From contig CAVRVY010000004.1 of NCBI GenBank assembly GCA_963724765.1, positions 768,001 to 832,000 of the forward strand: DNA of 64,000 nt. The letters are read 5' to 3'. Below the pieces are notes generated by a model. The model saw only the letters and a list, made by a program, of their open reading frames with translations, did no database searches and was not told the DNA's origin. The position numbers and the translations under genes were made by a program. This document shows positions 305 through 23,932 of this stretch, piece after piece. How positions within the stretch are numbered: position 1 is the stretch's first letter; the number at the start of each line of letters is the position of its first letter. The DNA comes from an uncultured delta proteobacterium (GTDB lineage: Bacteria; Desulfobacterota; Binatia; Binatales; Binataceae).

Positions 305-1210
305 GTGCAACCTGAGGAGATACAAAACGCGGTCGCGGCGGATCGAAACCGTTTGCTGATCGTGCTCGCCCTGACGGCGCTCTATTGCGCCGCCGAATTC
401 ATCGGCGGGTACTACTCGAACAGCCTCGCGCTGATTTCCGACGCGGTCCATCTGCTGACCGACATCGCCGCGATCTGTCTCGCGCTGCTCACGCTATGGA
501 TCTCGACGCGTCCTGCGAGCGGCGCCAAGACCTATGGCTATCTACGCGCGGAAATCCTGGGCGCGCTGGCCAACGGGGTTTTCCTGTGGCTACTGGTGAT
601 CTTCATCTGGTTTGAGGCAGTCCAGCGTCTGCGCGATCCCAGGCCCGTCGCGGGGCTGACCGTAATCGCAATCGCAACGTTCGGTCTGGGCGTCAATGGC
701 TTCTCGGCCTGGATGACCCATGCGGCCGAAATTGAAGCGGGACGGCCCGGGATGGCGGTGCGGGCGGTATTCGTCCACGTGCTGTCCGACCTGATCGGCA
801 CCTTCGGCGTGATGCTGGCGGGCGCGCTGGTGTACTTTTTCGGATGGCGCCAGGCGGACGCGCTGATAGGCCTGCTGATCGGCGCGCTGGTGCTCTACAG
901 CTCGTGGGGCCTGCTGCGCGAAGGCGTCGACATCCTGATGGAATCGGTGCCGGCGCATATCGACCTCGAAGAGCTGCGCCACGATCTGCTCGCGGTCCAG
1001 GACACCGAGGAGGTCCACGATCTTCACGTCTGGTGTCTGGCGAGCCGCCAGTTCGCGCTCTCTGCGCACGCCGTGGTGACGCGCGAGGCCGACCAGGACC
1101 GCGTGCTCTCCGAGATGTCTGCGATGCTCGAGCGGAAGTTCAACATCCGGCACATGACCGTGCAGCTCGAACGCGACAGCCGCCGCGCCAGCGAGCCCGA
1201 GCATTTCTGA
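305..1210 (+). CDS. czcD: Cation diffusion facilitator (Zn/Co/Cd efflux)
   Basis: SNSLALISDAVHLLTD (TM2 HxxxD), TYGYLRAE, HVLSD (TM5), VHDLHVW, HMTVQLE; multiple TM helices. Confidence 0.9.
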   Translation: MQPEEIQNAVAADRNRLLIVLALTALYCAAEFIGGYYSNSLALISDAVHLLTDIAAICLALLTLWISTRPASGAKTYGYLRAEILGALANGVFLWLLVIFIWFEAVQRLRDPRPVAGLTVIAIATFGLGVNGFSAWMTHAAEIEAGRPGMAVRAVFVHVLSDLIGTFGVMLAGALVYFFGWRQADALIGLLIGALVLYSSWGLLREGVDILMESVPAHIDLEELRHDLLAVQDTEEVHDLHVWCLASRQFALSAHAVVTREADQDRVLSEMSAMLERKFNIRHMTVQLERDSRRASEPEHF

Positions 1211-1216
1211 ATTTAC
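1173..1216 (+). repeat. Left copy of imperfect direct repeat (3' end of czcD) bounding an AT-rich island
   Basis: Exact 15-bp core CGAGCATTTCTGAAT at 1198-1212 recurs at 2618-2632, with flanking similarity (CCGCCGCG upstream, T/C-TAC downstream). Confidence 0.85.
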
Positions 1217-1659
1217 CTGGCTATCAGGTCATATCCCTTCAATAGCCGTTTCAGTCTCAAAGCTACTGCAGCCCTCCTCAACCCGTTTTTTATTTCGTCC
1301 CTGAACCCTTCGGCATATCTTTTGACCTCCTAAACGGTTCCCCATTCCCTGCATCGTTTGCGCTCGAGCTCATTAGTTGCAAGCAGCTCTTGGAATCTAA
1401 TTTACTAACTTGAACGAGCTCCGTGCACGACGAGTTGAAACTATGTTAATAAACAAATCATGACGATCTATCATGTTCTTTATTCAGCATTTGTATGCAC
1501 TCGAATAAACAATTAACTAGTCCTTGCCGGTAATAACGTGCGGTAATGGCGTGATAGATATAGATATAAAGGACATCCCGGATCGCAGCGTAATGTTTGT
1601 TTGCGCCTTGACGTCTCAACGCTGACCTGCTTCTATAATGTGAATAATGTGTGTCGAGG

Positions 1660-1687
1660 TTGTAGTTCGTAACGATCGCATTATAAT
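1660..1687 (+). promoter_or_regulatory. Putative sigma70 promoter of the OMP gene
   Basis: TTGTAG-N16-TATAAT in AT-rich DNA about 195 nt upstream of the ATG; a second TATAAT lies at 1634. Confidence 0.35.
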
Positions 1688-1881
1688 AGCTGAGGTTTGC
1701 GGTCCGCAAAAAAGCTGCGCTCGAGATTGAGGTGTTCGTTAGTAAGGCCTGCGGTCGGTAATTGAACTGTTTCCTTCAGTCTTAACTGCTCGAAATTACT
1801 AGCTCAAAATCGGCCGAGCGACTTCGACGTCTGTCGCTCGACGCAGGTAATCGCGGTTGTGTCTCAAGGAGGAGGTGTGCC

Positions 1882-2547
1882 ATGAGGTCTGTTCGTATTT
1901 TTGCTGCTGTCGCGCTGTTGATTGGTTATTTTGCCACGTATGCCTGCGCTCAAGGCTTTTATGCCGATTCTTTTGGCGGCGGCGTCTTCGCACAAAACGC
2001 CTTTGCGCGAGTGGCTGATCCTTTACTTCCGGCTAGCATTAATTCCCACATCAACTACGACGTTGGATGGCTCGCAGGCGCTGCTGGAGGGTATGAACTG
2101 CCGCTGGGTTTGGCGTTCGAAGGCGAATTCACGTTTCGCCAGAATGATATCGATCGTATTGCTAGCAGCGAGGCATTTTTTACCGGCGGTGATATGCACA
2201 GTTTCGCCATGATGGCGAATGGTTACTACCGACTGCATAATCGGACGCCGTTCACTCCGTATATCGGAGGCGGCGTTGGAGAGGTTGTCGTAGTAATGAA
2301 CAACACTCGTCCGGTTGGCGTCAGCGGAAGCTTCGGTGGCACCGATGCGGTTTTCGCGTATCAGGCGATCGGCGGCATCTCCGATTCTTTTTCGCCACGC
2401 TTGAGCCTGGCGGCGGAATATCGCTATTTCGCCACTACAAGACCGGGATTTCAGGAAGACATTGCAGGAATTTCGAACTTCAGGATCAGCCCTGACTATG
2501 AGACGCACAATGCCCTCTTAAAGGTAACTTACAATTTTGGACATTAA
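1882..2547 (+). CDS. Outer membrane beta-barrel protein (OmpA-like/OMP_b-brl, 8-stranded)
   Basis: Strong SD AGGAGG, signal peptide (ACA-QG), TPFTPYIGGGVG, AEYRYF, C-terminal VTYNF; lower GC than the flanks. Confidence 0.8.
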   Translation: MRSVRIFAAVALLIGYFATYACAQGFYADSFGGGVFAQNAFARVADPLLPASINSHINYDVGWLAGAAGGYELPLGLAFEGEFTFRQNDIDRIASSEAFFTGGDMHSFAMMANGYYRLHNRTPFTPYIGGGVGEVVVVMNNTRPVGVSGSFGGTDAVFAYQAIGGISDSFSPRLSLAAEYRYFATTRPGFQEDIAGISNFRISPDYETHNALLKVTYNFGH

Positions 2548-2598
2548 AAAAGGGTAGTTATAAAGATTGTACGCCTGACAGCGGCCGGCGTCCCGTCG

Positions 2599-2636
2599 GC
2601 GACCGCCGCGACGAGTTCGAGCATTTCTGAATCTAC
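2599..2636 (+). repeat. Right copy of the czcD 3'-end direct repeat
   Basis: GCGACCGCCGCGACGAGTTCGAGCATTTCTGAATCTAC aligns with 1173-1216; offset 1420 bp. Confidence 0.85.
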
Positions 2637-3295
2637 GGAACGCTTAAATGCTCGGTCAGGTCCAGCGCGATCGGACGCCATCGCGCGCTGTGCAAATCCG
2701 CGCCGCCCGCTTCTAGTTCGAGAATGTGGATCGATCCAAGATCGATGTGCGGCTCGAAGACACCCGTCAACTGGCGCACTACTGCGCGAATTACGCCGCG
2801 ATGCGCGACCAGTAGCGCGTTCGCGCCGGCAATGCCGCTCGCGCGCGCGTCCCACAGGGCGAGCATCTTTGCGATCCCGCGCGCGACGCGCGCAACAAAC
2901 GCCGCCCTGCTCTCGCCCTCGGGATAGACGAAGTCGGGCGCCAGCCGGTTGGAGTTCCATCGCCGGAATTCGTCGGGATAGCGCTCGGCGATCTCCTCCG
3001 TGGTCAGGCCCTCGAAGAGGCCGAAATCGACCTCGACGAATTCCTCGATTGCGACCGCCGCAGCGTCCTTGCCTGCGATGATGCGTGCGCCTTCCGTCGC
3101 GCGCACCAACGGGCTGGTGAATACCGGGGCGAAGCCGCTCGCGCCTGCGCGCGCCGCGAGCCATCCGCGCGCCGCGCGCATCTGGCGGCGGCCCAACGCC
3201 GACAGCGCGACATCGGTGCGGCCGTAGTAACGGATGCTCGAGTGGCCGACGGTTTCGCCGTGGCGCACCAGCACCAACCGCACCGGATTCGCCAT
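2633..3295 (-). CDS. Histidine phosphatase family protein (PGM/CobC/PspA-like)
   Basis: LVRHGET, SPLVRA, EVDFGLFEG, GES, VAHRGVI motifs. Confidence 0.85.
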   Translation of the reverse strand: MANPVRLVLVRHGETVGHSSIRYYGRTDVALSALGRRQMRAARGWLAARAGASGFAPVFTSPLVRATEGARIIAGKDAAAVAIEEFVEVDFGLFEGLTTEEIAERYPDEFRRWNSNRLAPDFVYPEGESRAAFVARVARGIAKMLALWDARASGIAGANALLVAHRGVIRAVVRQLTGVFEPHIDLGSIHILELEAGGADLHSARWRPIALDLTEHLSVP

Positions 3296-3300
3296 CGGGG

Positions 3301-4611
3301 TCAGGCTTTTGCTGGCGCGGCGTCGTCGAGCGGGTTGAGCACCAGGCCGGTCAGCAGCTTGGGATAGAAGTAGGTCGATTTCTCGGGCATCACGGCGCCC
3401 GTGTCGCTGACCGCTTCGACGTCGCTTATCGCCGGCGGATTCATCAGGAAGGCGCCGCTGGCTGTGCCCGGGCCGACGTTCTCAAGCGCACCAAGTGCGT
3501 CGATTGTGTATTCGATAAGTCCGCCCGCCTTGATCTGCTCGGGCGTGATCTGAAAGATGCGCTCCAGCACCAGTGCGTGCAGCACGCTTACGTCGAGCCG
3601 TTGCACAGCTTGTGGTGACCCCGGCATCGCGTCGGCCATCGCACTCGGATCATTGAGCCGCAAGAGCCGCAGCTTGACCCGCTCGCCGCCGAGCGCGACC
3701 GCGATCGCGCCCTGCCCCGCTTTCGCCAGCGCCGCGCGCATCGCGTCGGCGCTGCTGAACTCCTCGACCGCGAACAATGGCGCCACCCGCGTATCGAACG
3801 ACGCTATCGTTTCCGGATCAAGACGCCGCGCCACACGATAAGTCGGCAGGATCACCAATCCTGGATCGTCGCAGGCGACCAGCGTCATCATCGTGTAATC
3901 GTAAGGCTGCGCGGCAGCCGGATCGTGCTCGGCAGCGCGACGGCGGCGGCGATACTCGAGCGCGGTTTCGTAGCGATGGTGGCCGTCGGCGATGAAGATG
4001 CGCGGGCTCTCGAGTTCGTCCTGAATCGTCGCAATTGCCGCCTCGTCCTCGATCGGATGCAACTGGTTGCGGATGCCGAGGTCGTCGGTGACCTCCAGCG
4101 CGGGCTCACGCGCCGTAAGCTCGGCCGTGAGACTGGCGAGCGCTGGATGCGCGCCGGCGTAAAGGCCGAAGACTGAGCTGACGTTGGTGTTGAGCGCGGT
4201 CAGCAGTTCGAGCCGGTCCTGTTTGGCGGCGGGAAAAGTCCGTTCGTGCGGCAGGATTCGTCCGGCGCTGAACTCCTCCAGCCGGATGCGCGCGATAAAC
4301 CCGTCACGCCGTAGCAGACGCCCCTCGATCTCAAAAAACTGCGAGTACAGATAAATCGCCGGCCGGGGAGCGCGCTTGAGGATGCCTTCATTAAGCCACT
4401 CGCCGAGCGTGCGCGCCGCCGCACCGTAGCGGTCCGGATCGCGGTTGAGCTCCAGGCGCACGACGTTATAAAGGCTGCGCGCGTAGAGCGCGTCCTGGCG
4501 CGCCTTGTCGATTAGGTCATATGGCGGTGCGACGACGTTGCTCAGCACGCCGACTCGCTCGGGATCGTAGCGCAGTCCCGGGAATGGTTCGATTCGATGC
4601 GTCATCGCCAT
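3301..4611 (-). CDS. DUF1015 family protein
   Basis: APPYDLI, ILPHERT, IADGHHRYETA, MPEKSTYFYPKL signatures. Confidence 0.9.
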   Translation of the reverse strand: MAMTHRIEPFPGLRYDPERVGVLSNVVAPPYDLIDKARQDALYARSLYNVVRLELNRDPDRYGAAARTLGEWLNEGILKRAPRPAIYLYSQFFEIEGRLLRRDGFIARIRLEEFSAGRILPHERTFPAAKQDRLELLTALNTNVSSVFGLYAGAHPALASLTAELTAREPALEVTDDLGIRNQLHPIEDEAAIATIQDELESPRIFIADGHHRYETALEYRRRRRAAEHDPAAAQPYDYTMMTLVACDDPGLVILPTYRVARRLDPETIASFDTRVAPLFAVEEFSSADAMRAALAKAGQGAIAVALGGERVKLRLLRLNDPSAMADAMPGSPQAVQRLDVSVLHALVLERIFQITPEQIKAGGLIEYTIDALGALENVGPGTASGAFLMNPPAISDVEAVSDTGAVMPEKSTYFYPKLLTGLVLNPLDDAAPAKA

Positions 4612-4621
4612 CGCTCAAGCC

Positions 4622-5245
4622 TCATCGCGAAGCGCCGCCCTTAAGCGCGGCGGCCAACTGGCGCTCGCTCACCGCGCCCGGGCGCAGCACCCGTATCCCG
4701 GAGCGGTCGATGGCGACCACGGTACTGGGTGCGCCACCGGCAAGCCGGCCATCCTCAACGAACACTTTAATTTTATCGCCGAGTGCGCGGCGCGCCGCAG
4801 CGGGCTCCACGGCCGGCGGCTCGCCCGCGAGATTCGCACTGGTCGCGGTGAGCGGACTTCGAAGCGCGGCGGCGAGCGCGCGGGCGATCGGATGCGACGA
4901 GACGCGCACGCCAACTCCGCCGTCGGCACCGATGAGCGCCGCCGGAATTCCGTCGCGCGCAGGCAGCACCAGGGTAAGCGGTCCCGGCCAGAAGGTCTCG
5001 GCAAGGACCCGCGCCTGGACCGGCACTTCGCGCGCGACCGCGAAAGCCATCGCGGTGTCGGCGGCGATCAACGCCACCGGCTTCTCGGGCTCGCGTCCCT
5101 TGATCGCGAACAGCCGCTCGAGCGCGTGCATCGTGAGCGCGTCCACGCCGAGCGCATAGAACGTTTCCGTCGGATAGACGATCGCCTCACCGGCGACGAG
5201 CGCCGCCAGCGCATCCCTGATGGCCGTGCGATTGTTCTCAGCCAA
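4622..5245 (-). CDS. tsaC: L-threonylcarbamoyladenylate synthase (YrdC/Sua5)
   Basis: YPTETFYAL, KGREPEKP, FWPGPLT, TATSANLAG motifs. Confidence 0.92.
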   Translation of the reverse strand: MAENNRTAIRDALAALVAGEAIVYPTETFYALGVDALTMHALERLFAIKGREPEKPVALIAADTAMAFAVAREVPVQARVLAETFWPGPLTLVLPARDGIPAALIGADGGVGVRVSSHPIARALAAALRSPLTATSANLAGEPPAVEPAAARRALGDKIKVFVEDGRLAGGAPSTVVAIDRSGIRVLRPGAVSERQLAAALKGGASR

Positions 5246-5296
5246 CGTGGGACACTCCGAAGCTCTCGGCCACGGCCGGCAATCTTTCGATGCTGT

Positions 5297-6622
5297 TCAT
5301 TGAGGTTGAGGCAGGCGTTCGAGCGCGCGGCGGGCGATATCGCGGCGCATCTGTTTGCCCTCGAACTCGATCATCGCGGCCGCCTCGTAGGCGGTGGCAA
5401 CCGCGTGGCGCAAATCCGCCGCCATCGCAGTCACCACCAGCACGCGGCCGCCGTCGGACACCAGCCGCCCCTCGTGCGTCGAGGTCCCCGCATGAAAAAC
5501 CTTGACGCGCGTTTTTTGCAGCGCCCATCGCACCTTCGCATCCGAGGGCTCGGTCCCGTCGATCCGCTCAAGCCCGCTTATCGCAACGCCCTTGCGATAC
5601 TCGCCGGGATATCCGCCCGAGGCCAGCACGACGGCCGCAGCGGCGCGCGGCGAGAGCCTGACGCTCAAATTTTTGAGCCGGCCCTCGGCGCAGGCGAGCA
5701 GCGTCTGGGCGAGGTCGCCCTCGAAACGCATCATCAGCGGCTCGCATTCGGGATCGCCGAAGCGAACGTTGTACTCGAGCACGTTGATTCGCGCGCCATC
5801 GATCATCAGCCCCACGAACATCACACCGCGAAACGGTGCGCCGCGCGCGCGCATCGCGCCGAGCGTCGGCGCCACCACCTCGTCCATCACGCGCGCTTCG
5901 AGCGCCGGGCCGAAATGCGGGACCGGCGTGTACGCGCCCATCCCGCCGGTGTTGGGGCCGCGGTCGCCGTCGAAGGCGGCCTTATGATCCTGCACCAGGC
6001 CGAGCGCGACCGCATTTTCGCCGTCGCAGAGCGCGAAGAAGGAAAGCTCCTCGCCCACCAGCCTCTCTTCGATCACGACCCGCGCGCCCGCCGCGCCAAA
6101 GAGCCGGCGTTCCATCGCGTCGTCGATCGCGGCCAGCGCGGCCGCGGCGTCCTCGCACACGACCACGCCCTTGCCCAGCGCCAGGCCGTCCGCCTTGACC
6201 ACCATCGGGCCGCCATGCGCGCGGACCCATCGGCGCGCCGCCTCGGCCTCGTCGAAGACCTCGAAGCTCGCGGTCGGCACGCCCGCCTCACGCATCACGG
6301 CCTTGGCGAACGCCTTGCTCGCCTCCAACTGCGCCGCGGCTTTGGTGGGGCCGAAAACTCTGAGTCCCGCGCGATCGAACTCGTCGACGATTCCCGCGGC
6401 CAGCGGATCTTCGGGCCCGACCACGGTGAGATCGATTTTTTCGCTGCGCACGAAATCGGCCAGAGCGGCGAAATCGTTCTGCGCGACGGGGATTACCTTC
6501 GCGAGCTGCGCTATGCCGGGATTGCCGCCTGCGCAGTAGAGCTTGCGCGCCGTCTCGCTCTGGTTAAGCCGCCAGAGCAGTGCGTGCTCGCGCGCGCCCC
6601 TGCCAACAACCAGTACTTTCAT
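5297..6622 (-). CDS. purD: Phosphoribosylamine-glycine ligase
   Basis: GAREHAL, GPEDPL, KADGLALGKGV, GPNTGGMGAY, EYNVRFGDPE. Confidence 0.97.
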   Translation of the reverse strand: MKVLVVGRGAREHALLWRLNQSETARKLYCAGGNPGIAQLAKVIPVAQNDFAALADFVRSEKIDLTVVGPEDPLAAGIVDEFDRAGLRVFGPTKAAAQLEASKAFAKAVMREAGVPTASFEVFDEAEAARRWVRAHGGPMVVKADGLALGKGVVVCEDAAAALAAIDDAMERRLFGAAGARVVIEERLVGEELSFFALCDGENAVALGLVQDHKAAFDGDRGPNTGGMGAYTPVPHFGPALEARVMDEVVAPTLGAMRARGAPFRGVMFVGLMIDGARINVLEYNVRFGDPECEPLMMRFEGDLAQTLLACAEGRLKNLSVRLSPRAAAAVVLASGGYPGEYRKGVAISGLERIDGTEPSDAKVRWALQKTRVKVFHAGTSTHEGRLVSDGGRVLVVTAMAADLRHAVATAYEAAAMIEFEGKQMRRDIARRALERLPQPQ

Positions 6623-6701
6623 CAGGCCGATACTTCCATCAGGCCGACCGCCTTTATCGGGCCAGTAATTTTAATCGAGCAAGCGACTTTCATCGAGCAA
6701 C
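6614..6701. repeat. Degenerate tandem array, 5 x 17-18 bp, overlapping the purD start
   Basis: TACTTTCATCAGGCCGA / TACTTCCATCAGGCCGAC / CGCCTTTATCGGGCCAG / TAATTTTAATCGAGCAAG / CGACTTTCATCGAGCAAC. Confidence 0.7.
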
Positions 6702-6753
6702 TGAGAACGCCGGACGGCAGGCGCGGCCTGGAATTAATTGTGGCGCGCGGTCC

Positions 6754-8319
6754 TCAGTGACGGAAGTGGCGCACCCCTGTAAAGACCATCGCGAGCCCGT
6801 GCGCGTCAGCGGCGGCGATGACCTCGGAATCGCGCATCGCACCACCCGGCTGTGCGATCGCCGTGGCGCCGGCCTCGGCAGCCAGCGTCGGGCCGTCGGG
6901 AAAAGGAAACAAAGCCTCGGACACCAGCACCGAATCTTTAAGTGATACTTTAAGCCGTGCTGCCTTCTCGCGCGCCGCGTACAGCGGGTCGATTCGCGAG
7001 GTCGCGCCACCACCGACCGCCAGCGTGCGATCCTCGGTGACGAAGGCGATCGCATTGGACTTTACGTGCTTGCACACCCGGATACCGAATTCCATTGCGC
7101 GCAATTCCGCGGGGGTCGGCGCACGCCGCGTCACGACCTTGCCTTCGCGGGGGTCCTCAAGGCTGAGGTCGGGTGTTTGCACCAGCAATCCGCCGACGAC
7201 TCGTTTGAGGTCCAAGTCCTCGCGCCGCACCGCCTCGGGATGAAACCGCATCACGCGCCGATTCTTCTTCTTGCGCAAAAACTCCAGCACACCGGGCTCG
7301 AAGGAGGTCGCAATCAGAACCTCGGTGAACAATTCGTCGACCGCCTCGGCGAACGGCAGGTCCCACGGGCGATTAGCGATGATTATTCCGCCGAATGGCG
7401 AGTCGGGGTCGGTCGCGAACGCCTTCCCCCAAGCCTCAAGCAGCGTCGCGCCGACGCCCACGCCGCACGGCATGTTGTGCTTGAGGATCGCGACCACGGC
7501 GTCTTTGTAGCCGGTGAAATCGAGCATCAGATTGACGGCAGAGCTGATGTCGAAGACGTTGTTGAAGGAAAGCTCGCGGCCATGGAGTTGTTCGGCGATT
7601 TCGAGAAAGCGCCCGTAGAGCGCGCCTACCTGATGCGGATTCTCGCCGTAGCGAAGCGTCTGCTCGCGCGGCAGCGAGAGGCTGAAGGTCTCGCCGAGCG
7701 GTTGGCGCTGGCCGTCTTCGATCGCGCCGAGGTAATTGGAGATTGCGCAATCGTAAGCGGTCACACGCGCAAAGGCCTTGCGCGCCAGACGCCATCGGGT
7801 CGCCCGCCCAAGCGCGCCGCCGCTCTTTGCGAGTTCCTCGATCAGCGCCGGGTAGTCAGCCGGGTCGACCACCACCGCGACGTCGTTCCAGTTCTTGGCC
7901 GCCGCCCGCACCAGCGCGGGGCCGCCGATGTCGATATTCTCGATCGCGTCGTCCAGGCTGACGCCGGCGCGCTCGACCGTGCGTTCGAAGGGATAGAAGT
8001 TGACCACCACCAGGTCGATCGGCTCGATCCCATGCTCGCGCATCTGGCGGCGATGGTTCTCGTCGCCGCGCCGCGCCAGGATTGCGCCGTGAATCTTCGG
8101 ATGGAGCGTCTTGACCCGCCCGTCGAGCATCTCGGGCGAGCCGGTAAAGTTTTCGACTCCGCGGACCTTGACTCCGTCCGCTTCCAGAGCCGCCGCGGTG
8201 CCGCTGGTCGAAACTATCTCGACTCCGCGCACCGCCAGCGCCCGGGCGAATTCGCCGAGCCCCGCCTTATCCGAGACGCCGAGCAGCGCCCGGGTGATTT
8301 TTACCGCGCCGGTTTCCAT
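6754..8319 (-). CDS. purH: Bifunctional AICAR transformylase/IMP cyclohydrolase
   Basis: GRVKTLHP, ENIDIGGP, LRYGENPHQ, KHVKSNAI, C-terminal TGVRHFRH. Confidence 0.97.
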   Translation of the reverse strand: METGAVKITRALLGVSDKAGLGEFARALAVRGVEIVSTSGTAAALEADGVKVRGVENFTGSPEMLDGRVKTLHPKIHGAILARRGDENHRRQMREHGIEPIDLVVVNFYPFERTVERAGVSLDDAIENIDIGGPALVRAAAKNWNDVAVVVDPADYPALIEELAKSGGALGRATRWRLARKAFARVTAYDCAISNYLGAIEDGQRQPLGETFSLSLPREQTLRYGENPHQVGALYGRFLEIAEQLHGRELSFNNVFDISSAVNLMLDFTGYKDAVVAILKHNMPCGVGVGATLLEAWGKAFATDPDSPFGGIIIANRPWDLPFAEAVDELFTEVLIATSFEPGVLEFLRKKKNRRVMRFHPEAVRREDLDLKRVVGGLLVQTPDLSLEDPREGKVVTRRAPTPAELRAMEFGIRVCKHVKSNAIAFVTEDRTLAVGGGATSRIDPLYAAREKAARLKVSLKDSVLVSEALFPFPDGPTLAAEAGATAIAQPGGAMRDSEVIAAADAHGLAMVFTGVRHFRH

Positions 8320-8320
8320 C

Positions 8321-9457
8321 TCAGGCGGCCGCCCTGCGATACACGCGCGGCACGCGTTTGCCGACCGTACACAGCATCTCGTAAGAGATGGTCTGAGCGA
8401 GGCGCGCGATGTCGTTGACGCTGATCATCGCCTCGCCCGCGCCGCCCCACAGGATGACCTCGTCGCCGATTGCCGCACCGGGTACGTCAGTCAGGTCTAC
8501 CATGGTCAGATCCATGCACACCGCACCGACCACCGGCGCGCGCCGCCCGCGTATCATCACTTCACCGCCGTGCTGAAGTCCACGCCGATAGCCGTCGGCG
8601 TAGCCGACCGCGAGCACGCCGATCGCGCTCGGGCGCGGCGTGACGAAGGTATGGCCATAGCTGACGCCGACTCCCGCCGGCACGCGCTTGACCTGGACCA
8701 CGCGGGTTTTAAAGGTCATCACGGGCCGCAGTTCCACCCGCTCGCGCACGGCCGGCACGGGCGGCAATCCATAAATCGCAAGGCCGGGGCGCAGCAGACT
8801 ATAGTGCGCGTCGGGCCGCAAAATCGAGGCAGCGGAATTGGCGACATGGGCGACCCGCGGATCGATCCCTGCCGCGCGCAGCCGCGCCGTCGCGGCGTTG
8901 AACACTTCAAGTTGCGCGCCGGTTACGGGGCTTTGAGGATCGCCGGCATTGACCAGCAAGGTGCACACGCCCTCGACGGTCAGCGACGGTGCGCGGCCGA
9001 GTTCCGCGACTACGTGGTCCAGTTCGTCGGGCAGAATCCCGAGCCGGGTCGCGCCGCTGTCGACCTTAAGATGAATCTGAAAATTCGCGCGGGCCTGCGC
9101 TTCCACCGCGCGCCCCAACGGTGCGATCAGCGCCACGTCGTACACGAATGGCGTGAGGTCGAGGCCGACGATCTCCGCGGCCTCACCGGCAAGAAATCCT
9201 CCCAGGAGGTAGATACGTTCGTGCACGCCGGCCGCGCGCAACTCACGCGCCTCGCACACCCGGGCGACGCCGAAATGGCCGCAGCCCTCACCGCGCAATG
9301 CGCGCGTGACTTCAATCGCACCGTGCCCGTACGCGTCGGCCTTGACCACCGCCATCAGTTCCGCGCCGCTGCCAGCCGCCTTGATCGCCTGGTAGTTGGC
9401 GCCGAGCGCTCCCAGATCGATCTCGGCCACGCTCGGCGGCCCGTTCACGATTTCCAT
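8321..9457 (-). CDS. alr: Alanine racemase (with some atypical active-site residues)
   Basis: AVVKADAYGHG PLP lysine, RPGLAIYG, GVSYG, GYADG, CMD, TISYE. Confidence 0.9.
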   Translation of the reverse strand: MEIVNGPPSVAEIDLGALGANYQAIKAAGSGAELMAVVKADAYGHGAIEVTRALRGEGCGHFGVARVCEARELRAAGVHERIYLLGGFLAGEAAEIVGLDLTPFVYDVALIAPLGRAVEAQARANFQIHLKVDSGATRLGILPDELDHVVAELGRAPSLTVEGVCTLLVNAGDPQSPVTGAQLEVFNAATARLRAAGIDPRVAHVANSAASILRPDAHYSLLRPGLAIYGLPPVPAVRERVELRPVMTFKTRVVQVKRVPAGVGVSYGHTFVTPRPSAIGVLAVGYADGYRRGLQHGGEVMIRGRRAPVVGAVCMDLTMVDLTDVPGAAIGDEVILWGGAGEAMISVNDIARLAQTISYEMLCTVGKRVPRVYRRAAA

Positions 9458-9557
9458 CGATGCCTGAAACCGTCCTTGTTATTCTCTCGCCGGATGGCTT
9501 GATGATACCGGCCCGACCTCTTTTTTGACACTCCCCTGCCCAAGTGATATTCACATA

Positions 9558-9645
9558 ATTGGCTGGGGGTGTGCGCGCAGAGAGGCGCACTGAGAAGGAA
9601 AACCCCTCGAACCTGATCCGGGTAATGCCGGCGTAGGGAAGCCGC
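9558..9645 (+). ncRNA. TPP (thiamine pyrophosphate) riboswitch aptamer
   Basis: GGGG...CTGAGA...ACCC...GAACCTGATCCGGGTAATGCCGGCGTAGGGAAG THI-box consensus directly upstream of thiS. Confidence 0.95.
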
Positions 9646-9688
9646 GCTCCGCCCCTTGCTGGACGGCGGAACGATCGCGGTTCCGCCC

Positions 9689-9724: not shown

Positions 9725-9726
9725 CG

Positions 9727-9948: not shown

Positions 9949-9994
9949 CGCGCCGGCGTGCGCGCCGCGCGCGCAACCCGTGTATGATCGATTC

Positions 9995-13578: not shown

Positions 13579-13609
13579 AGCCGTCTCTCATCAGGCGCAG
13601 TCGAGGCTG

Positions 13610-16843: not shown

Positions 16844-16906
16844 CGTCGGCGAAACCGACGACTGGCCGCGCGCCGCGCGGTTTGCGGGCCTCGGCTGAGT
16901 GAACTC

Positions 16907-16948
16907 GATAGGGGCGGTGGGACCACGGTCTCATCGCCCCTTATCTTT
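16907..16948 (+). terminator. Long hairpin downstream of the ThDP enzyme gene
   Basis: GATAGGGGCGGTGGGACC-AC-GGTCTCATCGCCCCTTATC followed by TTT. Confidence 0.55.
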
Positions 16949-17002
16949 GACGCGCGGTGAAGGGACGCGGGACGCTTTCTCTCGCGCGCGGACCGTGTAA
17001 GC

Positions 17003-17572
17003 TTGGAAACGATGGTTGCCCAGCCTCTGCGTCGAGCGCTTCGCCTCGCGGCCGGGATGGCCGTGCTGATCCTGCCGGTCTCGCTTGGGCTCGCTCTGAC
17101 CGGATGCAAACTCACGGACGCGAATAAGGTCGCGGCCGTTCCGAAGAGCTGCCCCGATGGCGCCGAGCTCAAGGGCTCGCCACCGCCCAACGGCACGGAA
17201 ATCTGGTGCGAGAAGGATGTCGGCGGAATACCGGTCAAGGACGGCGCCTTCGTCGTCTACAACCTAAGCGGCAGCAGAATGATCGAGGGCAACTACCACG
17301 AGGGCAAACAGTCGGGCGAATGGACGATGTGGCACGCGAACGGCCAGCGCGCCTCGGTCGACCACTACACCGACGGCGTGCAGAACGGCTTGCACATCAG
17401 CTGGTACGCCAACGGCTCCAGAGCGATCGAGGGTGAATACCGCGACGGCAAACGCGAAGGCGTGTGGCATCGATGGGATCCCAACGGGTTCAAACAATGG
17501 ACCGACGTCTACAAAGACAACGAAAAGATCTCGGGTGATGTCAGCGATGGCCCCAAGACCAAGATTCCTTAA
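17003..17572 (+). CDS. MORN-variant repeat lipoprotein (YwqK-like)
   Basis: Lipobox LALTGC; repeats EGNYHEGKQSGEWTMWHANG, NGLHISWYANG, EGEYRDGKREGVW. Confidence 0.8.
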   Translation: METMVAQPLRRALRLAAGMAVLILPVSLGLALTGCKLTDANKVAAVPKSCPDGAELKGSPPPNGTEIWCEKDVGGIPVKDGAFVVYNLSGSRMIEGNYHEGKQSGEWTMWHANGQRASVDHYTDGVQNGLHISWYANGSRAIEGEYRDGKREGVWHRWDPNGFKQWTDVYKDNEKISGDVSDGPKTKIP

Positions 17573-17728
17573 ACCAGGATTCCCCTACCGCGTAACGCCG
17601 ATTCCCGCCGCCACATCGCGGCACGCCGGTTAAAAGAGGCGAGCAACTAGTGCGGTGAGTCTCAAGTTCGTTAAATACAATTCTCCGTCGATAGCCGTTC
17701 GTTGGACCTTTCTGTCCTGGCCTCTTGG

Positions 17729-17747
17729 GTCATCCTGAGCGAAGCGA
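17729..17747 (+). repeat. Partial REP-like element GTCATCCTGAGCGAAGCGA
   Basis: Matches the 5' half of the GTCATCCTGAGCGAAGCGAAGGATCT-type extragenic palindrome; lies between convergent genes; related copy at 58087-58123. Confidence 0.5.
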
Positions 17748-17756
17748 CTGTGAGCA

Positions 17757-19409
17757 TCATTCCATCGACGATTGCGACGCTTCGATCGCGGCGAACGGTA
17801 TCTGCTCGGCCGCAAGCGCGCTCACGTAGTATGCCTCCGGCGCGCCCCACACCAGCGCCGGCTCCGCGCGATTGCCGACGCCGATCGGATGCGCGAAGAC
17901 CTGCTCGATGTTGGCGTTGATCCGGAGCGCGTTGGGCGCGAGCGGCGCGGCCAGCACGCCATTGCGAATCAGGTAGGAGTCGCCGCTCACCGTGCAGGTG
18001 AAGTCACCCGCGCGCTGCCCGTTTATCGGATAGGTGTACCAGACCCTGCCGACGTAGAGGCCCTCGCCCACCGCGCGAATCAGCTCGCGCTCACTTTTTC
18101 CGCCGCGGGCGCGCATTACCACGTTGGTCGCGGCCGAGCCCGGATTCGCGTCGAAGCGGCGCACAGCGCTCTCGCCCAGGCGATATCCGCTGTTGGGCGG
18201 AAAGCTCGCCTGCTCGGCGCCGAGCGGCCCCAGCTTCTCGGCGCGATGCTCGTCGGTCGCCAGCCGATGACCGTCGTAGAAATTCGAAAGCAGCCCAACG
18301 AGCCGCCCGTCCCGAATCATTATCGTGCGGCGCGCCGGTAGCCCCTCACACGTAAGCCGGCGGCGAATCGCGCCGCGAGCGGCCGCGGGATCGTCGAGCA
18401 GGCTCACCCTCTGGTCCATCACCTGCGCACCGAAGCGTCCATGATAAGCCGTGCTGGCGGCGTAAAACGCGCCGGTAGAGAGCGACGGAATCACCATGTA
18501 GTTGAGTATTTCCGCGACCGGCTGCGGGCCGAACACCACGCGATACGTGCCACCCGGCGACCGTTCGCCGCCGCCCAGCGCGAGCGCACGCACGACCGCG
18601 TCGCGCCCGGCCCGCGCCGCCGCCGCGCGCATCCCGCCGAGCGTCGCGCCGAGCGCCGACGCGGTGCCCTTGGCGCCGAGCGATTCGATAAGCGCCGTCA
18701 CCGTGGAGGTGAAGTGCGCGCCGGTCTCGGCCCGCACGTCGTCGAAGTTCGAACTCGCAAGCGCCATCCGGTCGCGCATGATCGAGACGTCGCCGCCCAG
18801 CACCAGGCCGGGCGCCGGCGTCTCGATCATGCGCGCCGCCGCCGGCGGCATGGTGAAAGCCTCGAGCGCACCGCCGACGATTTGCCATGCAGCCTCGACC
18901 AGCGCGGCGTCGCCCGCGCGCATCAGGCCGCCTGCCGATGCGTCGGCCGCACCGGCCGAACGGGCCCCACCTGGCGCGAGCTTGCGCGGTTTGCCGGGCA
19001 ACCCGGAAAACTGCGGCGTCCCGGGTAACCCGGGAAAATGTGGCGTCCCGGGTAACCCGGGAAAATGTGGCGTCCCGGGTAACCCGGGAAAATGCGGATC
19101 GACCAGCGCCGCGCTGCGTGCGCGAACAAGCGCCGCCCGCAGCGCTTCCAGGCTCAAGTCAGCGGCCTCGGTCGCGGTCCCGACCTCGCGTGCATCGCGG
19201 CGCATCACGATTCTGAGCGTGAAGCCGTCGGCCACGTGCGACTTCAACTCCTCGACACCGCGAGAGGCAATGTCTGAGGTATAGGCGAGACGCGCGACGC
19301 GATGCTCGGCCGAGGCGCAATAGACCTCGAACTCCGCGAGATCGCGCTCGCGCGCGAGCATCGCACGCGCCTCGCGTACGAAGTTTTTCAGTTCCGCCGC
19401 CGCACGCAT
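17757..19409 (-). CDS. pmbA: TldE/PmbA family protein with an internal tandem repeat
   Basis: Downstream of tldD; CEGLPAR..IRDGRLVGLL, TNVVM, GDFTCTVSG..IRNG; lacks HExxxH. Confidence 0.8.
   Translation of the reverse strand: MRAAAELKNFVREARAMLARERDLAEFEVYCASAEHRVARLAYTSDIASRGVEELKSHVADGFTLRIVMRRDAREVGTATEAADLSLEALRAALVRARSAALVDPHFPGLPGTPHFPGLPGTPHFPGLPGTPQFSGLPGKPRKLAPGGARSAGAADASAGGLMRAGDAALVEAAWQIVGGALEAFTMPPAAARMIETPAPGLVLGGDVSIMRDRMALASSNFDDVRAETGAHFTSTVTALIESLGAKGTASALGATLGGMRAAAARAGRDAVVRALALGGGERSPGGTYRVVFGPQPVAEILNYMVIPSLSTGAFYAASTAYHGRFGAQVMDQRVSLLDDPAAARGAIRRRLTCEGLPARRTIMIRDGRLVGLLSNFYDGHRLATDEHRAEKLGPLGAEQASFPPNSGYRLGESAVRRFDANPGSAATNVVMRARGGKSERELIRAVGEGLYVGRVWYTYPINGQRAGDFTCTVSGDSYLIRNGVLAAPLAPNALRINANIEQVFAHPIGVGNRAEPALVWGAPEAYYVSALAAEQIPFAAIEASQSSME
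18994..19097. repeat. 27-bp tandem repeat x ~3.9 (PHFPGLPGT) in tldE
   Basis: CCGGGTAACCCGGGAAAATGTGGCGTC: two exact copies plus two variants. Confidence 0.95.
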
Positions 19410-19427
19410 CGCCGCCTCATTTCGCGC

Positions 19428-21023
19428 TCATCCACCGCCGAGCCGCGCCCGCGAGCGCATCGTCGGCCCGCCGTTGGACATCCGCTTGACCTGCATCGGC
19501 TGCCCCTTGCCGCAGTTGGGGATCGCGATCAAGCGCAGATCGTTGCCGACCGCGTCGACGTGCAGGAAGAACTGCTTGGAATCGGCAATCACGCTCCCCG
19601 CGCGGTAGAGCCGGCCCACTCGGCCGTGGTCGATTTCGTAGACCCGGCGCGCCGAGATGCGGAAGTTCTCGCGCGATTCCGCGATCGACGGGACCGCGCT
19701 GCCGCAAATGTAGTAGCCGTGCTCGACGTCGGCGATGATCTGTTGCGGATCGCTCTCTCCGGCCATCAGGAAGGTGTTCGACATCCGGATGAGCGGGAAG
19801 TAAAAGACTTCGCTCGCGCGCGCCGATCCGTTGGGCTCGACGCCGAGCACGGCGGCCGTGTCACGCGAGTTGAGAAAGCCGCGAAAGACTCCCTTTTCGA
19901 CGTGCGTCACGCGCCGCGCGCGCGTCCCCTCATGGTCGTAGCGGTAATGGCCGTAGCCGTCGAGGCTGGGGTCGGAGCAGGCGCTCATCAGCGGCGAGCC
20001 GACCTGGCGGCCGACCTCGTTGTCCTGGAGCGAGCGCAAAAACCAGCTCCGTCCCGCGTACGCCGCCTCCATCTTGAGCGCGCGGTCGGCCTCGCTAGGA
20101 TGGCCGATGATCTCGTGCGAGACCAGCGCGTTGAAATGCGGGTCGGTGACCACCGTGACTTCGGCGTCGGGCGGTTTGAGCACCGGCGCCGCGGCCAGTT
20201 CGCGCGCCTCGCCTGCAAGCTCGAGCGCGAACGTGAGCAGGTCCGGATTCGGCATCAGCTCGCCGCGCCATCCGTCGCAGAGGCACTCCAGGCCGCGCTG
20301 CTGCCCGATCGTGTCGTATATTTCCTGATGGCCGTCGCCGTTTTGCGCCACGATGTAGCAGTCGCCCTGCGAAAACGCGAAGCCCTGGCTGATGAGGGTA
20401 CCCTCGCTGCTGATGAACAGTTCTTCGCGCAGCTCGCTCAGCGCCGCGACCGCGTTGAACGCGATTTCCGGGCCGAGCCCAGCCACGCGGGCCGAGGCCT
20501 CGCGGCATAAACGCTTGAGATCGCCGGGGTCGAGCGTGCGCGGGTCGCGCTTGTAGACGGCCGCGACCTCGTCGTGCACCGCGGCGCGCGGCGCCGGCGC
20601 CGCGCTCGCGAGGCTCCGCGCGCATCCGTAGATTCCCGAGCCTCCATTGAGCGCGCGGATCAGCGCGGCCTTCTCGCGCGCGCCAAGCCGCGCGCGCTCG
20701 TAGGCTTCGCCGAGACCCGCGCGGATGGCCGCGAGCAGCTGCGCCGGCCGCAGCGCAAGGCGGCCGACTTCGACTCCGGTCTGGCCGGTGCTGGAGGCGC
20801 CGGTGCGCTCGGTGACCCGCACGTTCACACTGAAGCCGGCGCTCTCGCCCTCGTGAGCCGATCGCGCCTCGCCGTCTGTCGCAGAGCTGGAACGGCTGAA
20901 CATCGCCTCGAAGCGCAAATCGGCGTAGACCGCACCGCGATGGCTGCGGATGAAGGCGCGCAGCAGATCGGGGCCCTCTTTCTTGAGCAGCCCGGCCGCG
21001 CCAAACAGATCCGTGGATTTCAT
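19428..21023 (-). CDS. tldD: TldD metalloprotease
   Basis: HEIIGHPSEADR (HExxxH), YDHEG, IRMSNT, CGKGQPMQ, GGP. Confidence 0.9.
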   Translation of the reverse strand: MKSTDLFGAAGLLKKEGPDLLRAFIRSHRGAVYADLRFEAMFSRSSSATDGEARSAHEGESAGFSVNVRVTERTGASSTGQTGVEVGRLALRPAQLLAAIRAGLGEAYERARLGAREKAALIRALNGGSGIYGCARSLASAAPAPRAAVHDEVAAVYKRDPRTLDPGDLKRLCREASARVAGLGPEIAFNAVAALSELREELFISSEGTLISQGFAFSQGDCYIVAQNGDGHQEIYDTIGQQRGLECLCDGWRGELMPNPDLLTFALELAGEARELAAAPVLKPPDAEVTVVTDPHFNALVSHEIIGHPSEADRALKMEAAYAGRSWFLRSLQDNEVGRQVGSPLMSACSDPSLDGYGHYRYDHEGTRARRVTHVEKGVFRGFLNSRDTAAVLGVEPNGSARASEVFYFPLIRMSNTFLMAGESDPQQIIADVEHGYYICGSAVPSIAESRENFRISARRVYEIDHGRVGRLYRAGSVIADSKQFFLHVDAVGNDLRLIAIPNCGKGQPMQVKRMSNGGPTMRSRARLGGG

Positions 21024-21073
21024 CGCCGGCGCATCAGGTTGGAAAAGAGCAGCGCGACAGCGAGAGCGAGGCC

Positions 21074-22273
21074 CTAGATTACGCCTTCCTCTTTGAGGCG
21101 TTCGACCTCGGCCGCGTCGAAGCCGAGATATTGAGCGAAGACTTCATTGTTGTGCTCGCCGAGCAGCGGCGCGCTCGTGACCTCGACCGGCGAATCCTCG
21201 AGTTTCACCGGGCATCCAGGCATCGTGAATTCGCCGCGCACCGGATGCTGCACGGTAACGATCATACCGCGCTCGCGCAGATGCGGGTCGTTGAGGAGCT
21301 CGACGCTGTCGAGCACTTTGCCGCAGGGCACGTCGGCCTCGCCCAGGATCCGCATCACTTCATGTTTGGTACGCTTCGTAGTCCACGCGTTGATCGCCGC
21401 GGTCAGTTCTTCGACGTGGTGAAGGCGCGAGCGGCGATCCTTGAAGCGCTCATCGACAGCCATTTCCGGCCGCCCGATCGCGGAGCACAGGTTGGTCCAC
21501 ATCTCGGGCGTCGTGCACAGGATATATACGTAGTCGTTGTCGCCGCCGGGGGCGCATGGATAAGTATCCGCTGGAGCGCCGGCGGAAATCCGGTTGCCCA
21601 TACGCGGGACCGGCTTGTGCGTGACGTACGTACCCATCATCGGCACGCGGCAGAAGTTGAGGATCGCGTCCTGCATCGAGAGCTCGACCTTCTGTCCCTT
21701 GCCGGTGCGCTCGCGCTGAATATACGCGGCCAGCAGGCCGATTGCCGCGTGCATCCCGGTGCCGGTATCGCCGATCGTCGGGCCGGGCTTCAGCGGCGGA
21801 GTCTCCGGCGTCCCGGTCAGCGCCATCGCGCCGCCCGAGGCCTGCGCGATCATGTCGAAGCTTTTGTATTTGCTGTAAGGGCCGTAAGTGCCGAAGCCTT
21901 TGATGGTCAGGTAGATGAGGCGCGGGTTGATCTCATGCAGCCGCTCCCATCCGAAGCCCCAGCTCTCCAGCGTGCCGAGCGAAAAATTCTCGGACAGGAT
22001 GTCGACCTTCTTTACCAATTCGATAAAAATTTTCTTGCCGCGCTCGTCCTTGAGGTTGAGCGTGATCGAGCGCTTGTTGGCGTTGAGCAGCATGAAGTAG
22101 TGCGAGTCGACGCCGGGCTTTTCGGTCAACTGCCAGCGCCCCTGCTCCCCCTTGCCCGGCGCTTCCAGCTTGATTACGTCCGCGCCCAGCCATGCCAGCA
22201 TTTCGGTGCATGAAGTGCCGGCCTCGAACTGCGTCAAGTCGAGGACCTTTACGCCTGCCAATGCCTTGTCCAT
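21074..22273 (-). CDS. Class III CoA-transferase (formyl-CoA transferase-like, CaiB/BaiF)
   Basis: LDLTQFEAGTSCT, NANKRSITLNLK, GDTGTG catalytic Asp, APLLGEHN. Confidence 0.9.
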   Translation of the reverse strand: MDKALAGVKVLDLTQFEAGTSCTEMLAWLGADVIKLEAPGKGEQGRWQLTEKPGVDSHYFMLLNANKRSITLNLKDERGKKIFIELVKKVDILSENFSLGTLESWGFGWERLHEINPRLIYLTIKGFGTYGPYSKYKSFDMIAQASGGAMALTGTPETPPLKPGPTIGDTGTGMHAAIGLLAAYIQRERTGKGQKVELSMQDAILNFCRVPMMGTYVTHKPVPRMGNRISAGAPADTYPCAPGGDNDYVYILCTTPEMWTNLCSAIGRPEMAVDERFKDRRSRLHHVEELTAAINAWTTKRTKHEVMRILGEADVPCGKVLDSVELLNDPHLRERGMIVTVQHPVRGEFTMPGCPVKLEDSPVEVTSAPLLGEHNNEVFAQYLGFDAAEVERLKEEGVI

Positions 22274-22322
22274 CCGAGTCCTCCTCCTGTCGAGACCTCC
22301 TGCCGAGCCTCGGCGTGGGAGC

Positions 22323-22371
22323 TAATTGATCCGTTGTAGCGCCTCGGATTATCCCCGGCAAGCGCGGGATG
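22323..22371 (+). repeat. Left copy of ~50-bp imperfect direct repeat
   Basis: TAATTGATCCGTTGTAGCGCCTCGGATTATCCCCGGCAAGCGCGGGATG; its 19-bp core is identical at 23914-23932. Confidence 0.88.
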
Positions 22372-22384
22372 AGCGAATCGCGTA

Positions 22385-23856
22385 TCAGCGTGAGCGCACC
22401 TGAAGATGCGGCAACTCGGCAACGGTTCGCGGATAGCAAGCGTCCATCTTTGCGATCACGGCCGGTGGCGAGATATCAAACGCGCTCATCACCAGCACGG
22501 GCGCGGCGCCGCATTGACCGTCTGCCGCGGTTACGTCGTTACGCCGGCTTGGCGGCATGTAAAAGCGCACGACGTTGATGCAATAGGGGGGAAACACCGC
22601 GACCTTGCCCCCGCGGGTTCGTTGTGCTGCCAGCAGCGTCGCGTCGCGCCAGGCGGCTTCATCAGAACGCCTCAGCCGGTCGTGCACCGGGGGCACGGAG
22701 AGATGATATGAGCACTATGGCCAGGACAATGCGCAAAGCGGTGGAGCGCACCGACGCGGCTCCGAACGCGGCAAAAGCGAACATCCCGACGAACGATATA
22801 AGCACGTAGCGCGGAAACTCTAGCGGATGGATAAGATATGTCACCGCCATCACCGCCAGAATTGGGCCGGCAATCCACACGGCGAAAAACTCCGCCGCCC
22901 GCCGCGCCGAGCGCCATTGCCGCCAAACCCCGAAGGCGGCGAGCGCCACAAAGATCCAGAACAGCGCTATGGTTACCGGTCGAGTCGTGCAGAGTCGTGT
23001 ATGGCCACGAGATAGGCTGCTTCTTGATCCAATCGATCGCGCCCCACTATCACCGCCGCTCGCCACGAGGAGGCCGCCGCGCGAGGCAGCCAGGGCATGA
23101 GGAGTGCGATTCCTGCCACCACCGCACAGCCGGGACCGAAAACCGCCAACCGTCGAGACTGTGCATCCCAGAGCCGCGCGAGCAGCAGCCAGCCGAGCCA
23201 CAACGCTTCCGCAACCATCAGAAACGTAGAGGTAAAATTGCAGGCGATCATCAAGCCGGTGAAAATCGCGATCCCGACGTAGTTCAGGATACCGCCGCGG
23301 CGCTGGGCGCGAATAAAAAAAGTGATCTGCAAAAGTTCCGCGCACATCACAAGCGGATACATCCTGACCGTGCGGTCCGACAGCACCATCTCGAGATTGG
23401 TGGCGTACAGAAGCGCGGCGAAGGCTCCGGCCAGCTCGCCAACCGGCGAACTGCGGCCCGTCCGGCGTCGTCGGCCAGCGAGCGGCAGATCTCACGCACG
23501 GCGACGAAGACCAGAACTATCGCGATGGTCCCCAACGCGGCCGACATCGCGCGCATCGCGAACAGGCTGTCGCCGAAGATCCCTATCCATCGATGCAGCA
23601 TCGATGTCATAAAGCGCGAGCTTGCCAGGGTCGAGCTGCCGCTCCAGCTTAGCCACCTGCTCCGCGCTGGGCAGCGGAGGCGGCTGCCCAGGACGCTGCC
23701 TCGTCTCCGCTCATGTCGAAGCGTGCCAGGCGATGGAAGCGCAGATGCGCGCCGACGATGAGCGCGATCACCAGCAGAAGGAGCGCGAACAACCGCGTCG
23801 AGCGCCACGCCCAAAGCGCCAGGTCTTTGAAAGTTTGGCCGTTGTAGCACTGTCAT
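22385..23856 (-). pseudogene. Frameshifted GT-C (GT39/PMT/ArnT-like) membrane glycosyltransferase
   Basis: Fragments in alternating frames: LRFHRLARFDMSGDEAASW, PGKLALYD, LHRWIGIFGDSLFAMRAMSA, DRTVRMYPL, FPRYVL, WRDA; at least 6 frameshifts. Real decay or sequencing indels. Confidence 0.8.
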
Positions 23857-23881
23857 CAGATGACAGTCGGAGCGAAGCGAA

Positions 23882-23932
23882 TAATTGATACCTTGTAACT
23901 GCCTCGGGTCATCCCCCGGCAAGCGCGGGATG
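23882..23932 (+). repeat. Right copy of ~50-bp imperfect direct repeat
   Basis: TAATTGATACCTTGTAACTGCCTCGGGTCATCCCCCGGCAAGCGCGGGATG aligns with 22323-22371; offset about 1561 bp. Confidence 0.88.

Follow-up and report, generated by a model that had tools for sequence, protein, structure and literature searches.

How do single genes come to lie between direct repeats of host sequence when nothing beside them looks able to move them? We examined this question in a 64-kb stretch (hereafter the window) of the genome of an uncultured delta proteobacterium of the Binataceae (assembly GCA_963724765.1, contig CAVRVY010000004.1, positions 768,001 to 832,000), where a first-pass annotation had described two such inserts in 24 kb, each carrying one envelope gene, and had proposed a system of recombinase-less cassettes that might excise and vary the cell surface. 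Compared with related genomes, both inserts are real gene gains, and they look like footprints of ordinary recombination, not a new mobile cassette. Inserts are present in some genomes and absent from others, empty sites hold a single repeat copy, the repeats are mosaics, and the window has no mobility genes. The explanation we favor, to which we give an even chance of being right, is that one or two accessory genes at a time were gained independently at the borders of conserved genes, via general recombination with DNA from related genomes and with no recombinase encoded by the incoming element.

The window has a G+C content of about 65% and contains ordinary chromosomal genes. Its closest relatives in a genome scan were metagenome-assembled genomes (MAGs) titled Candidatus Binataceae, Binatia, or "uncultured delta proteobacterium". 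Seven relatives (L001, L002, L003, L010, L057, L075, and L071) are collinear with the window over up to ~20 kb, and the L010 locus lies on contig CAVWLM010000002.1.

At the second of the two sites, a 1,510-bp insert of host-like G+C (insert 2; 22372..23881), nearly all of it one gene, separates two divergent genes identified by profile matches: a family III CoA-transferase of the formyl-CoA-transferase-like kind on the left (21074..22273, minus strand) and a MoxR/RavA-type AAA ATPase on the right (23987..25108, plus strand). The insert is bracketed by two copies of a direct repeat on the plus strand, R1 (22323..22371) and R2 (23882..23932), which are spaced 1561 bp apart and identical in 44 of 51 alignment columns. 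All seven differences fall within the left 32 nt, and the right 19 nt are exact. R1 is native-like, matching the single copy found in empty-site relatives; R2 consists of a diverged 32-nt arm, clearly homologous to host sequence over that length, and then a 19-nt core that it shares exactly with R1. When alignments were scored with gaps and with weights for composition, this pair was the top direct repeat at spacings of 0.3 to 5 kb in the whole window, and its score of 70.1 exceeded the top of all 40 simulated windows (maximum, 56.5).

Three relatives (L001, L002, and L057) have exactly one repeat copy between the divergent CoA-transferase and MoxR genes, to which both window copies align. In two more distant relatives (L075 and L071), the same genes are adjacent, 154 bp apart, and insert 2 is absent. 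L010, in contrast, is occupied: an orthologous GT-C glycosyltransferase gene sits in the corresponding position there, oriented alike, beside a more diverged proximal copy of the repeat. Because relatives are empty with one repeat copy and L010 is occupied, we conclude that insert 2 is a genuine presence/absence polymorphism. That an independent genome has the orthologous gene in this position also means that the insert is not an assembly chimera, a possibility that the first-pass annotation had raised against its own proposal.

Neither the window nor the 80 loci in our comparison contained the site 2 repeat anywhere beyond this orthologous spot, and since it was found there alone, we rejected the reading that it is a dispersed repeat. 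A second candidate, that it is a duplicated sigma-70 promoter, was dropped when a consensus scan flagged neither copy; both copies lie 25 to 100 nt upstream of a minus-strand gene start. As a separate observation, an identical hexamer lies just inside both ends of insert 2 (22372-22377 and 23876-23881). In a circle, it would flank the repeat, and it may be due to chance.

The gene in insert 2 (22385..23856, minus strand, with a putative start codon at 23856) would encode a GT-C-fold glycosyltransferase (GT39-like) and is disrupted. The insert fits it closely, with ~25 nt to spare ahead of the likely start codon and 13 nt beyond the stop. Within 1.47 kb, the window copy falls into eight stop-to-stop segments with seven reading-frame switches. 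The L010 copy is intact, its open reading frame (ORF) running without interruption for 444 codons until the locus ends (L010 2-1336). Relative to this ORF, the window copy has eight insertions (seven single nucleotides and a 4-nt one) and two deletions (1 and 2 nt), for a net gain of 8 nt; none of these 10 indels lies in a homopolymer. When projected into frame, the window copy has no stop codon across the 444 codons, and its identity to L010 at the first, second, and third codon positions is 80.4, 88.7, and 64.4%, a pattern that points to purifying selection on the gene. The 13 flanking window genes contain no frameshifts. Given this pattern, the stop-free projection, and the intact flanking genes, the frame breaks would be either very recent decay or consensus errors confined to insert 2. 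We searched for an intact, near-identical copy of the window allele and found none; its best database relatives are ~75% identical.

The assignment of this cargo to the GT-C fold comes from a structural model. The protein collection holds an identical full-length version (487 amino acids) of the L010 protein, and the model of this full-length type had a predicted local distance difference test (pLDDT) score of 85.2 and a predicted template modeling (pTM) score of 0.86. In a structure search, all 24 of the 24 PDB matches with an E value of ≤0.001 were GT-C enzymes (PglB, STT3, ALG12, ArnT, AglB, DPY19, and AftD), at template modeling (TM) scores of 0.49 to 0.60; the predicted protein has the multi-helix membrane architecture of this fold. 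Sequence profiles were less responsive. Two fragments of the window copy, in two frames, scored 14.4 and 20.3 bits against PMT_2, short of its cutoff of 26.1 bits; the intact L010 ORF had no Pfam hit at an E value of ≤0.001; and a profile of 34 GT-C homologues matched no PDB sequence. There were 234 hits in the protein collection, and the name GT39 comes from the source annotations of homologues at 50 to 59% identity. Over the likely start codon, we read by eye a perfect 19-bp palindrome (23849-23867; 9-bp arms and a 1-nt center), which could be an operator.

The first site differs in several respects. Here, insert 1 (1217..2618) separates a czcD-type cation diffusion facilitator gene (305..1210, plus strand; Pfam Cation_efflux at 148 bits plus ZT_dimer, and NCBIfam CDF at 270.7 bits) from a histidine phosphatase gene (2633..3295, minus strand; Pfam His_Phos_1). 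The insert is a low-G+C islet, at 48 to 54% versus ~61 to 69% in the flanks, made up of ~665 bp of AT-rich noncoding DNA and one gene for a 221-amino-acid outer-membrane beta-barrel protein (OMP; 1882..2547, plus strand; Pfam OMP_b-brl / Surface_Ag_2). Its OMP_b-brl profile score is 40.2 bits, above the curated cutoff of 28.7, and the match covers residues 10 to 219 of 221. It has 160 homologues, the best at 84% identity, and one named Candidatus Binataceae protein at 57%. The annotated content of one envelope gene per insert is thus right for the intact OMP gene and right in that insert 2 holds one GT-C-type gene, but the latter is broken over its eight segments.

The direct repeat at this site (1174-1216 and 2594-2636; spacing, 1420) has a short core on the plus strand. 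Its left copy (1199..1216) spans the czcD stop codon, so that the last codons and stop of czcD form the repeat, and its right copy (2619..2636) abuts or overlaps the stop codon of the phosphatase gene. The core is an AT-rich exact 14-mer (1199-1212 in the left copy), or 17 of 18 positions with its extension; an exact 14-mer is expected to match 0.01 times per window, and two copies were found, both coinciding with the G+C break. The full 43-bp alignment scores 46.7, a level that 24 of 40 simulated windows reached with their top pair, which is the chance level. The match over the 30 nt upstream of the core (including the arm, 1174-1198) is no better than that of 26% of random segments with matched G+C, and the sequences to the right of the core show no similarity. 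We therefore rejected a longer duplication at site 1. The first-pass annotation's 40- to 50-bp duplications of host sequence stand at site 2 (44 of 51, with the score given above) but contract at site 1 to 14 exact nucleotides (17 of 18).

Because the czcD-side copy matches the czcD end of L010 at 33 of 34 nt, we take it to be the native one; only the last four codons of czcD are recognizable in the displaced copy. The czcD 3' end of L010 is orthologous (92% nucleotide identity), and L010 lacks the OMP gene, its czcD and phosphatase genes being separated by just 78 bp. Empty alleles, which the first-pass annotation had suggested seeking in sister genomes, thus exist at both sites. The phosphatase 3' end is itself a synteny breakpoint, with at least four different downstream neighbors among five genomes: the OMP gene and then czcD in the window, czcD in L010, a zinc-ribbon adenylate cyclase gene in L001 and L002, and an alpha/beta-hydrolase-like ORF in L003 (a name taken from reading the translation, without a profile search). 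The C-terminal residues of the phosphatase past a conserved LDLT(E/N)HL differ in each of these genomes (2633-2660 in the window, and L001, L002, L003, and L010). In addition, a 13-nt string that encodes the phosphatase end in L001 and L002 recurs inverted in L003, ~190 bp away (reverse complement at ~810-823), and hints at a small inversion at this breakpoint.

Two inserts in 24 kb was an undercount: we found a third repeat-bounded insert at ~27.5 to 29.3 kb. A tblastn search that took as queries 40 residues from either end of the products of 48 window genes returned one orphan gene end besides matches among paralogous window genes (a tblastx comparison of the window with itself was discarded, being dominated by low-complexity, G+C-rich matches). 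The orphan (27511..27657, minus strand) comprises the final 21 codons of an aldehyde dehydrogenase gene with their stop (27592-27657), plus ~80 nt downstream, and 14 of its 21 residues are identical to the true C terminus (E value, 1e-5). The in-place copy (29200..29332, minus strand) is the 3' end and downstream sequence of the aldehyde dehydrogenase gene that is intact (29267-30769, minus strand). This repeat is ~135 to 147 bp long at ~65 to 70% identity and has no identical core. The insert between the copies (27658..29199), known from the window alone, carries two minus-strand genes, one with a TOBE domain (27770-27976; Pfam TOBE, 65.7 bits) and one for an aldo/keto reductase (28061-29059; Pfam Aldo_ket_red, 275 bits).

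Since this third insert, alike in architecture, carries aldo/keto reductase and TOBE genes, the cargo is not envelope-specific, and the idea of surface-only cargo no longer holds. A single-gene insert in a relative also lacks long repeats: L001 has an extra ~1-kb segment, at a position equivalent to window ~16935, with one luciferase-like monooxygenase gene (L001 5691-6551, minus strand). This segment lies downstream of a TPP-enzyme gene, directly past a terminator-like hairpin, and its junctions share similarity of only 6 to 7 bp.

We next consider what could have moved these genes. Profile searches of 188 translated window ORFs (25 + 90 + 73) found no integrase or transposase family, and there were no tyrosine or serine recombinases, excisionases, or remnants of them in the 64 kb. 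The window likewise has no tRNA genes, as the first-pass annotation had noted for both classes of gene. The best terminal inverted repeats of the three inserts were no better than those of shuffled sequences (fractions, 0.11, 0.82, and 0.79), and insert 1 had no match in plasmid and phage collections. Insertion sequence (IS) elements leave short, exact target-site duplications, typically of 2 to 14 bp. The repeats here measure 14 exact nucleotides (17 of 18) at site 1, ~50 imperfect base pairs at site 2, and ~135 to 147 bp in the third case. The claim that they are longer than IS duplications therefore holds for site 2 but not for site 1, which falls within the size range of attachment (att) cores.

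Sites 1 and 2 both have an identical core at both ends (the exact 14-mer and 19-mer, respectively). These cores share no motif, and the two repeat pairs, recovered at the spacings given above as originally described, are indeed unrelated to each other. The inserts also differ in repeat length (18 versus ~50 bp), in G+C (foreign versus host-like), and in the state of the cargo (intact versus broken), all of which argue against a shared system. What the sites have in common is that imperfect direct repeats surround the cargo with no recombinase inside, and that one copy belongs to a conserved gene or region that is intact, the other being a displaced and diverged fragment. All three repeats consist of host sequence, namely, the region of the czcD stop codon, a conserved block between genes, and the aldehyde dehydrogenase 3' end. 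At sites 1 and 2, the short identical core adjoins the native flank, and the cargo families are common among Binataceae-type metagenome proteins, several of them named Candidatus Binataceae.

From this arrangement we infer both the recombination route and a donor among related genomes. Incoming DNA from related Binataceae would have carried its own diverged copy of the sequence beside the insertion point. On the homologous side, it may have joined by a crossover in the short identical core or been anchored in the neighboring gene; on the other side, the join may have been illegitimate, or the DNA may have entered as a circle. The outcome would be cargo lying between a native copy of host sequence and a diverged or orphaned one. 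Mosaic repeats are expected if DNA from a related genome brought its own version of the flank and joined through it. The occupied allele could then spread among lineages by homologous recombination in the flanking genes, and loss by recombination between the repeats would be possible in principle. Homology-facilitated illegitimate recombination, one of several routes listed in the first-pass annotation, fits best.

The history of site 2 can be traced a little further. At third codon positions, the window and L010 are 64.4% identical in the GT-C gene and 64.5 to 75.4% identical in 12 flanking genes, so insert 2 dates from roughly the time at which these two genomes diverged. Identity is higher in the CoA-transferase gene (80.2%) and in the 3' part of czcD (~80%). 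In a tree built from five syntenic genes, the window groups with the empty L001 and L002, and L010 groups with L003. The CoA-transferase tree instead groups the two occupied genomes, the window and L010 (ultrafast bootstrap [UFBoot], 91; species-like tree, approximately unbiased test [p-AU], 0.048), a conflict that movement of the occupied allele through flanking homology would be expected to produce. The simplest reading of these data would be a single gain, with the allele common to the window and L010 either by descent or through flank recombination. A gain that the L001/L002 lineage later lost again through the repeats is possible, and none of our phylogenetic analyses requires excision or loss.

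Several points weigh against general recombination with related DNA as the full explanation. The relatives were compared over only ~22 kb each. The identical 14- and 19-nt cores could equally have been left by an att-type site-specific crossover. A simple one-sided replacement alone duplicates no recipient sequence, and site 2 needs a circle or an unequal exchange. The third case could be the remnant of a deleted paralogue. The backbone of the phylogeny is weakly resolved, a grouping of the window with L010 not being rejected on the five-gene block (p-AU, 0.21), and plain vertical inheritance of a single gain is therefore also possible. Finally, the third-position identity of the GT-C gene lies below that of the adjacent CoA-transferase gene (64.4 versus 80.2%), which is ill-suited to one recent joint transfer of the two.

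Of the other explanations, the one that survives best regards the inserts as what is left of integrative elements, or as cis-mobilizable elements, whose recombinase was lost or is encoded elsewhere and whose repeat cores are att cores. Site 1 is where this idea has most in its favor, with an 18-bp core (17 of 18) at a gene 3' end, foreign G+C, and a long AT-rich noncoding stretch, and at both sites an identical core with a differing adjoining arm resembles the attL/attR pattern. The window, however, has no integrase, excisionase, or remnant of either, and there is no plasmid or phage similarity. Insert 2 amounts to a bare ORF, its G+C resembles the host's, and its repeat arm is clearly homologous to the host over 32 nt; the third case lacks an identical core, and the two cores that exist have no common motif. 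Taken over all the inserts, we therefore consider this explanation unlikely, but an att-type event with the recombinase elsewhere is a serious rival at site 1.

It is quite improbable, in our view, that the inserts are recombinase-less, circularizable single-gene cassettes that use their repeats to excise and reintegrate, thereby varying the cell surface. Imperfect direct repeats without a recombinase are what such cassettes would show, and the microcin H47 island (PMC5426353) demonstrates that elements of this kind exist. A mosaic repeat is also expected from Campbell-type reintegration of a circle with one repeat, and occupied and empty alleles coexist in close relatives. Against this stand the non-envelope cargo of the third insert, the out-of-frame GT-C copy, and the L001 insert without repeats; moreover, the phylogeny needs no excision, and three inserts in one 64-kb window do not amount to a rate. 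A broader proposal, that Binataceae routinely shuttle single accessory genes from species to species as repeat-bounded circles that enter empty sites by crossover in a 14- to 19-nt core using host functions only, strikes us as similarly improbable. If it were correct, mosaic repeats with a native arm, an identical core, and a diverged arm would be the signature of cassette exchange free of recombinase genes. Neither a new mobility mechanism nor programmed surface variation is established by our data.

The cargo might instead be ancestral, with no insertion in the window's lineage and with its absence from the empty relatives due to deletions between the repeats. A single copy, as seen in L001, L002, and L057, is what recombination of 50-bp repeats with each other would leave. 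The five-gene tree, in which the closest relatives (L001 and L002) are empty and the more distant L010 is occupied, is in keeping with this, as is the GT-C third-position divergence between the window and L010, which equals the background and makes the insert old. However, the outgroups L075, L071, and L057 are all empty, which would require at least three independent precise losses; the CoA-transferase tree groups the occupied genomes; and insert 1 is compositionally foreign. We see only a slim chance that this explanation is right. It is highly improbable that insert 2 is an assembly artefact, chimeric or misassembled: the seven frame switches in 1.47 kb, the excess of insertions (8 of 10 indels), the absence of stops on projection, and the lack of frameshifts in 13 flanking genes suggest a poorly polished, perhaps low-coverage, minority haplotype, but L010 has the orthologous gene with the same site, orientation, and repeat, and the boundaries fall exactly at the repeat copies.

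Several further observations concern the region and its relatives. Frame-breaking indels are frequent in housekeeping genes of the relatives' assemblies (purH, alr, and TldD in L003, L010, and L001), reaching 15 in purH and 9 in alr of the L003 assembly, so gene integrity in the relatives' records is unreliable; they show that data of this type do contain consensus errors such as those considered for insert 2. A second GT-C-type gene in the window (56113-57969) is intact (PMT_2, 60.4 bits) and had no tblastn match to the L010 GT-C protein at an E value of ≤0.001. An Rfam scan of the window found a thiamine pyrophosphate (TPP) riboswitch (9555-9656; 70.5 bits) upstream of thiG / thiE and nothing else. 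Within a PmbA/TldD-family gene, a 27-bp tandem repeat is present in at least three copies (18994-19097); alignments to relatives break or overlap there, and its copy number probably varies.

If general recombination with related genomes is indeed responsible, these inserts would provide a clear case from nature in which accessory genes entered and spread in an uncultured soil lineage with no mobile-element machinery. The genes gained would include ones for outer-membrane and glycosylation functions and also plainly metabolic ones. Each event would have left an orphaned flank copy as a readable scar, which could be mined across MAGs to gauge how much gene gain is driven by recombination.

How do these inserts compare with systems already described? 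Genomic islands and cis-mobilizable elements flanked by att sites carry a short identical core repeated at both ends. Site 1 resembles them in its short identical core, its location at a gene 3' end, and its foreign G+C, but differs in having no integrase in the window, no tRNA target, a length of 1.4 kb, and a single gene. Repeat-flanked elements that excise as circles have also been grouped as "unconventional circularizable structures". The microcin H47 island lacks a recombinase, has extensive imperfect direct repeats, spans 13 kb, and excises without RecA (PMC5426353). Our inserts share with it imperfect direct repeats that contain blocks of identity, and the absence of a recombinase gene. 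Those elements are larger, have defined att-like repeats, and were shown to excise as circles, whereas the inserts described here are known from sequence alone.

Two further comparisons bear on the recombination route itself. Homology-facilitated illegitimate recombination was put forward as the origin of orphaned 3' ends and immunity genes in type VI secretion system (T6SS) and Rhs loci (PMC5361080). The order of full-length gene, cargo, and diverged 3'-end copy seen in those T6SS, Rhs, and contact-dependent inhibition (CDI) orphans recurs in our aldehyde dehydrogenase case and, weakly, at czcD. Unlike in those cases, the genes involved here are housekeeping genes rather than toxin loci, and site 2 duplicates an intergenic block. 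Many hotspots of gene transfer are free of mobile elements, and the core genes that flank them recombine to excess (PMC5635113). As at those hotspots, we found accessory genes between conserved genes, no integrase or transposase, incongruence in a flanking gene, and variable content. The model for those hotspots, a double crossover in both flanks, creates no duplication, whereas the inserts in our window are bracketed by duplicated flank. With these differences noted, we conclude that the inserts are new instances of a kind of event that is already known.

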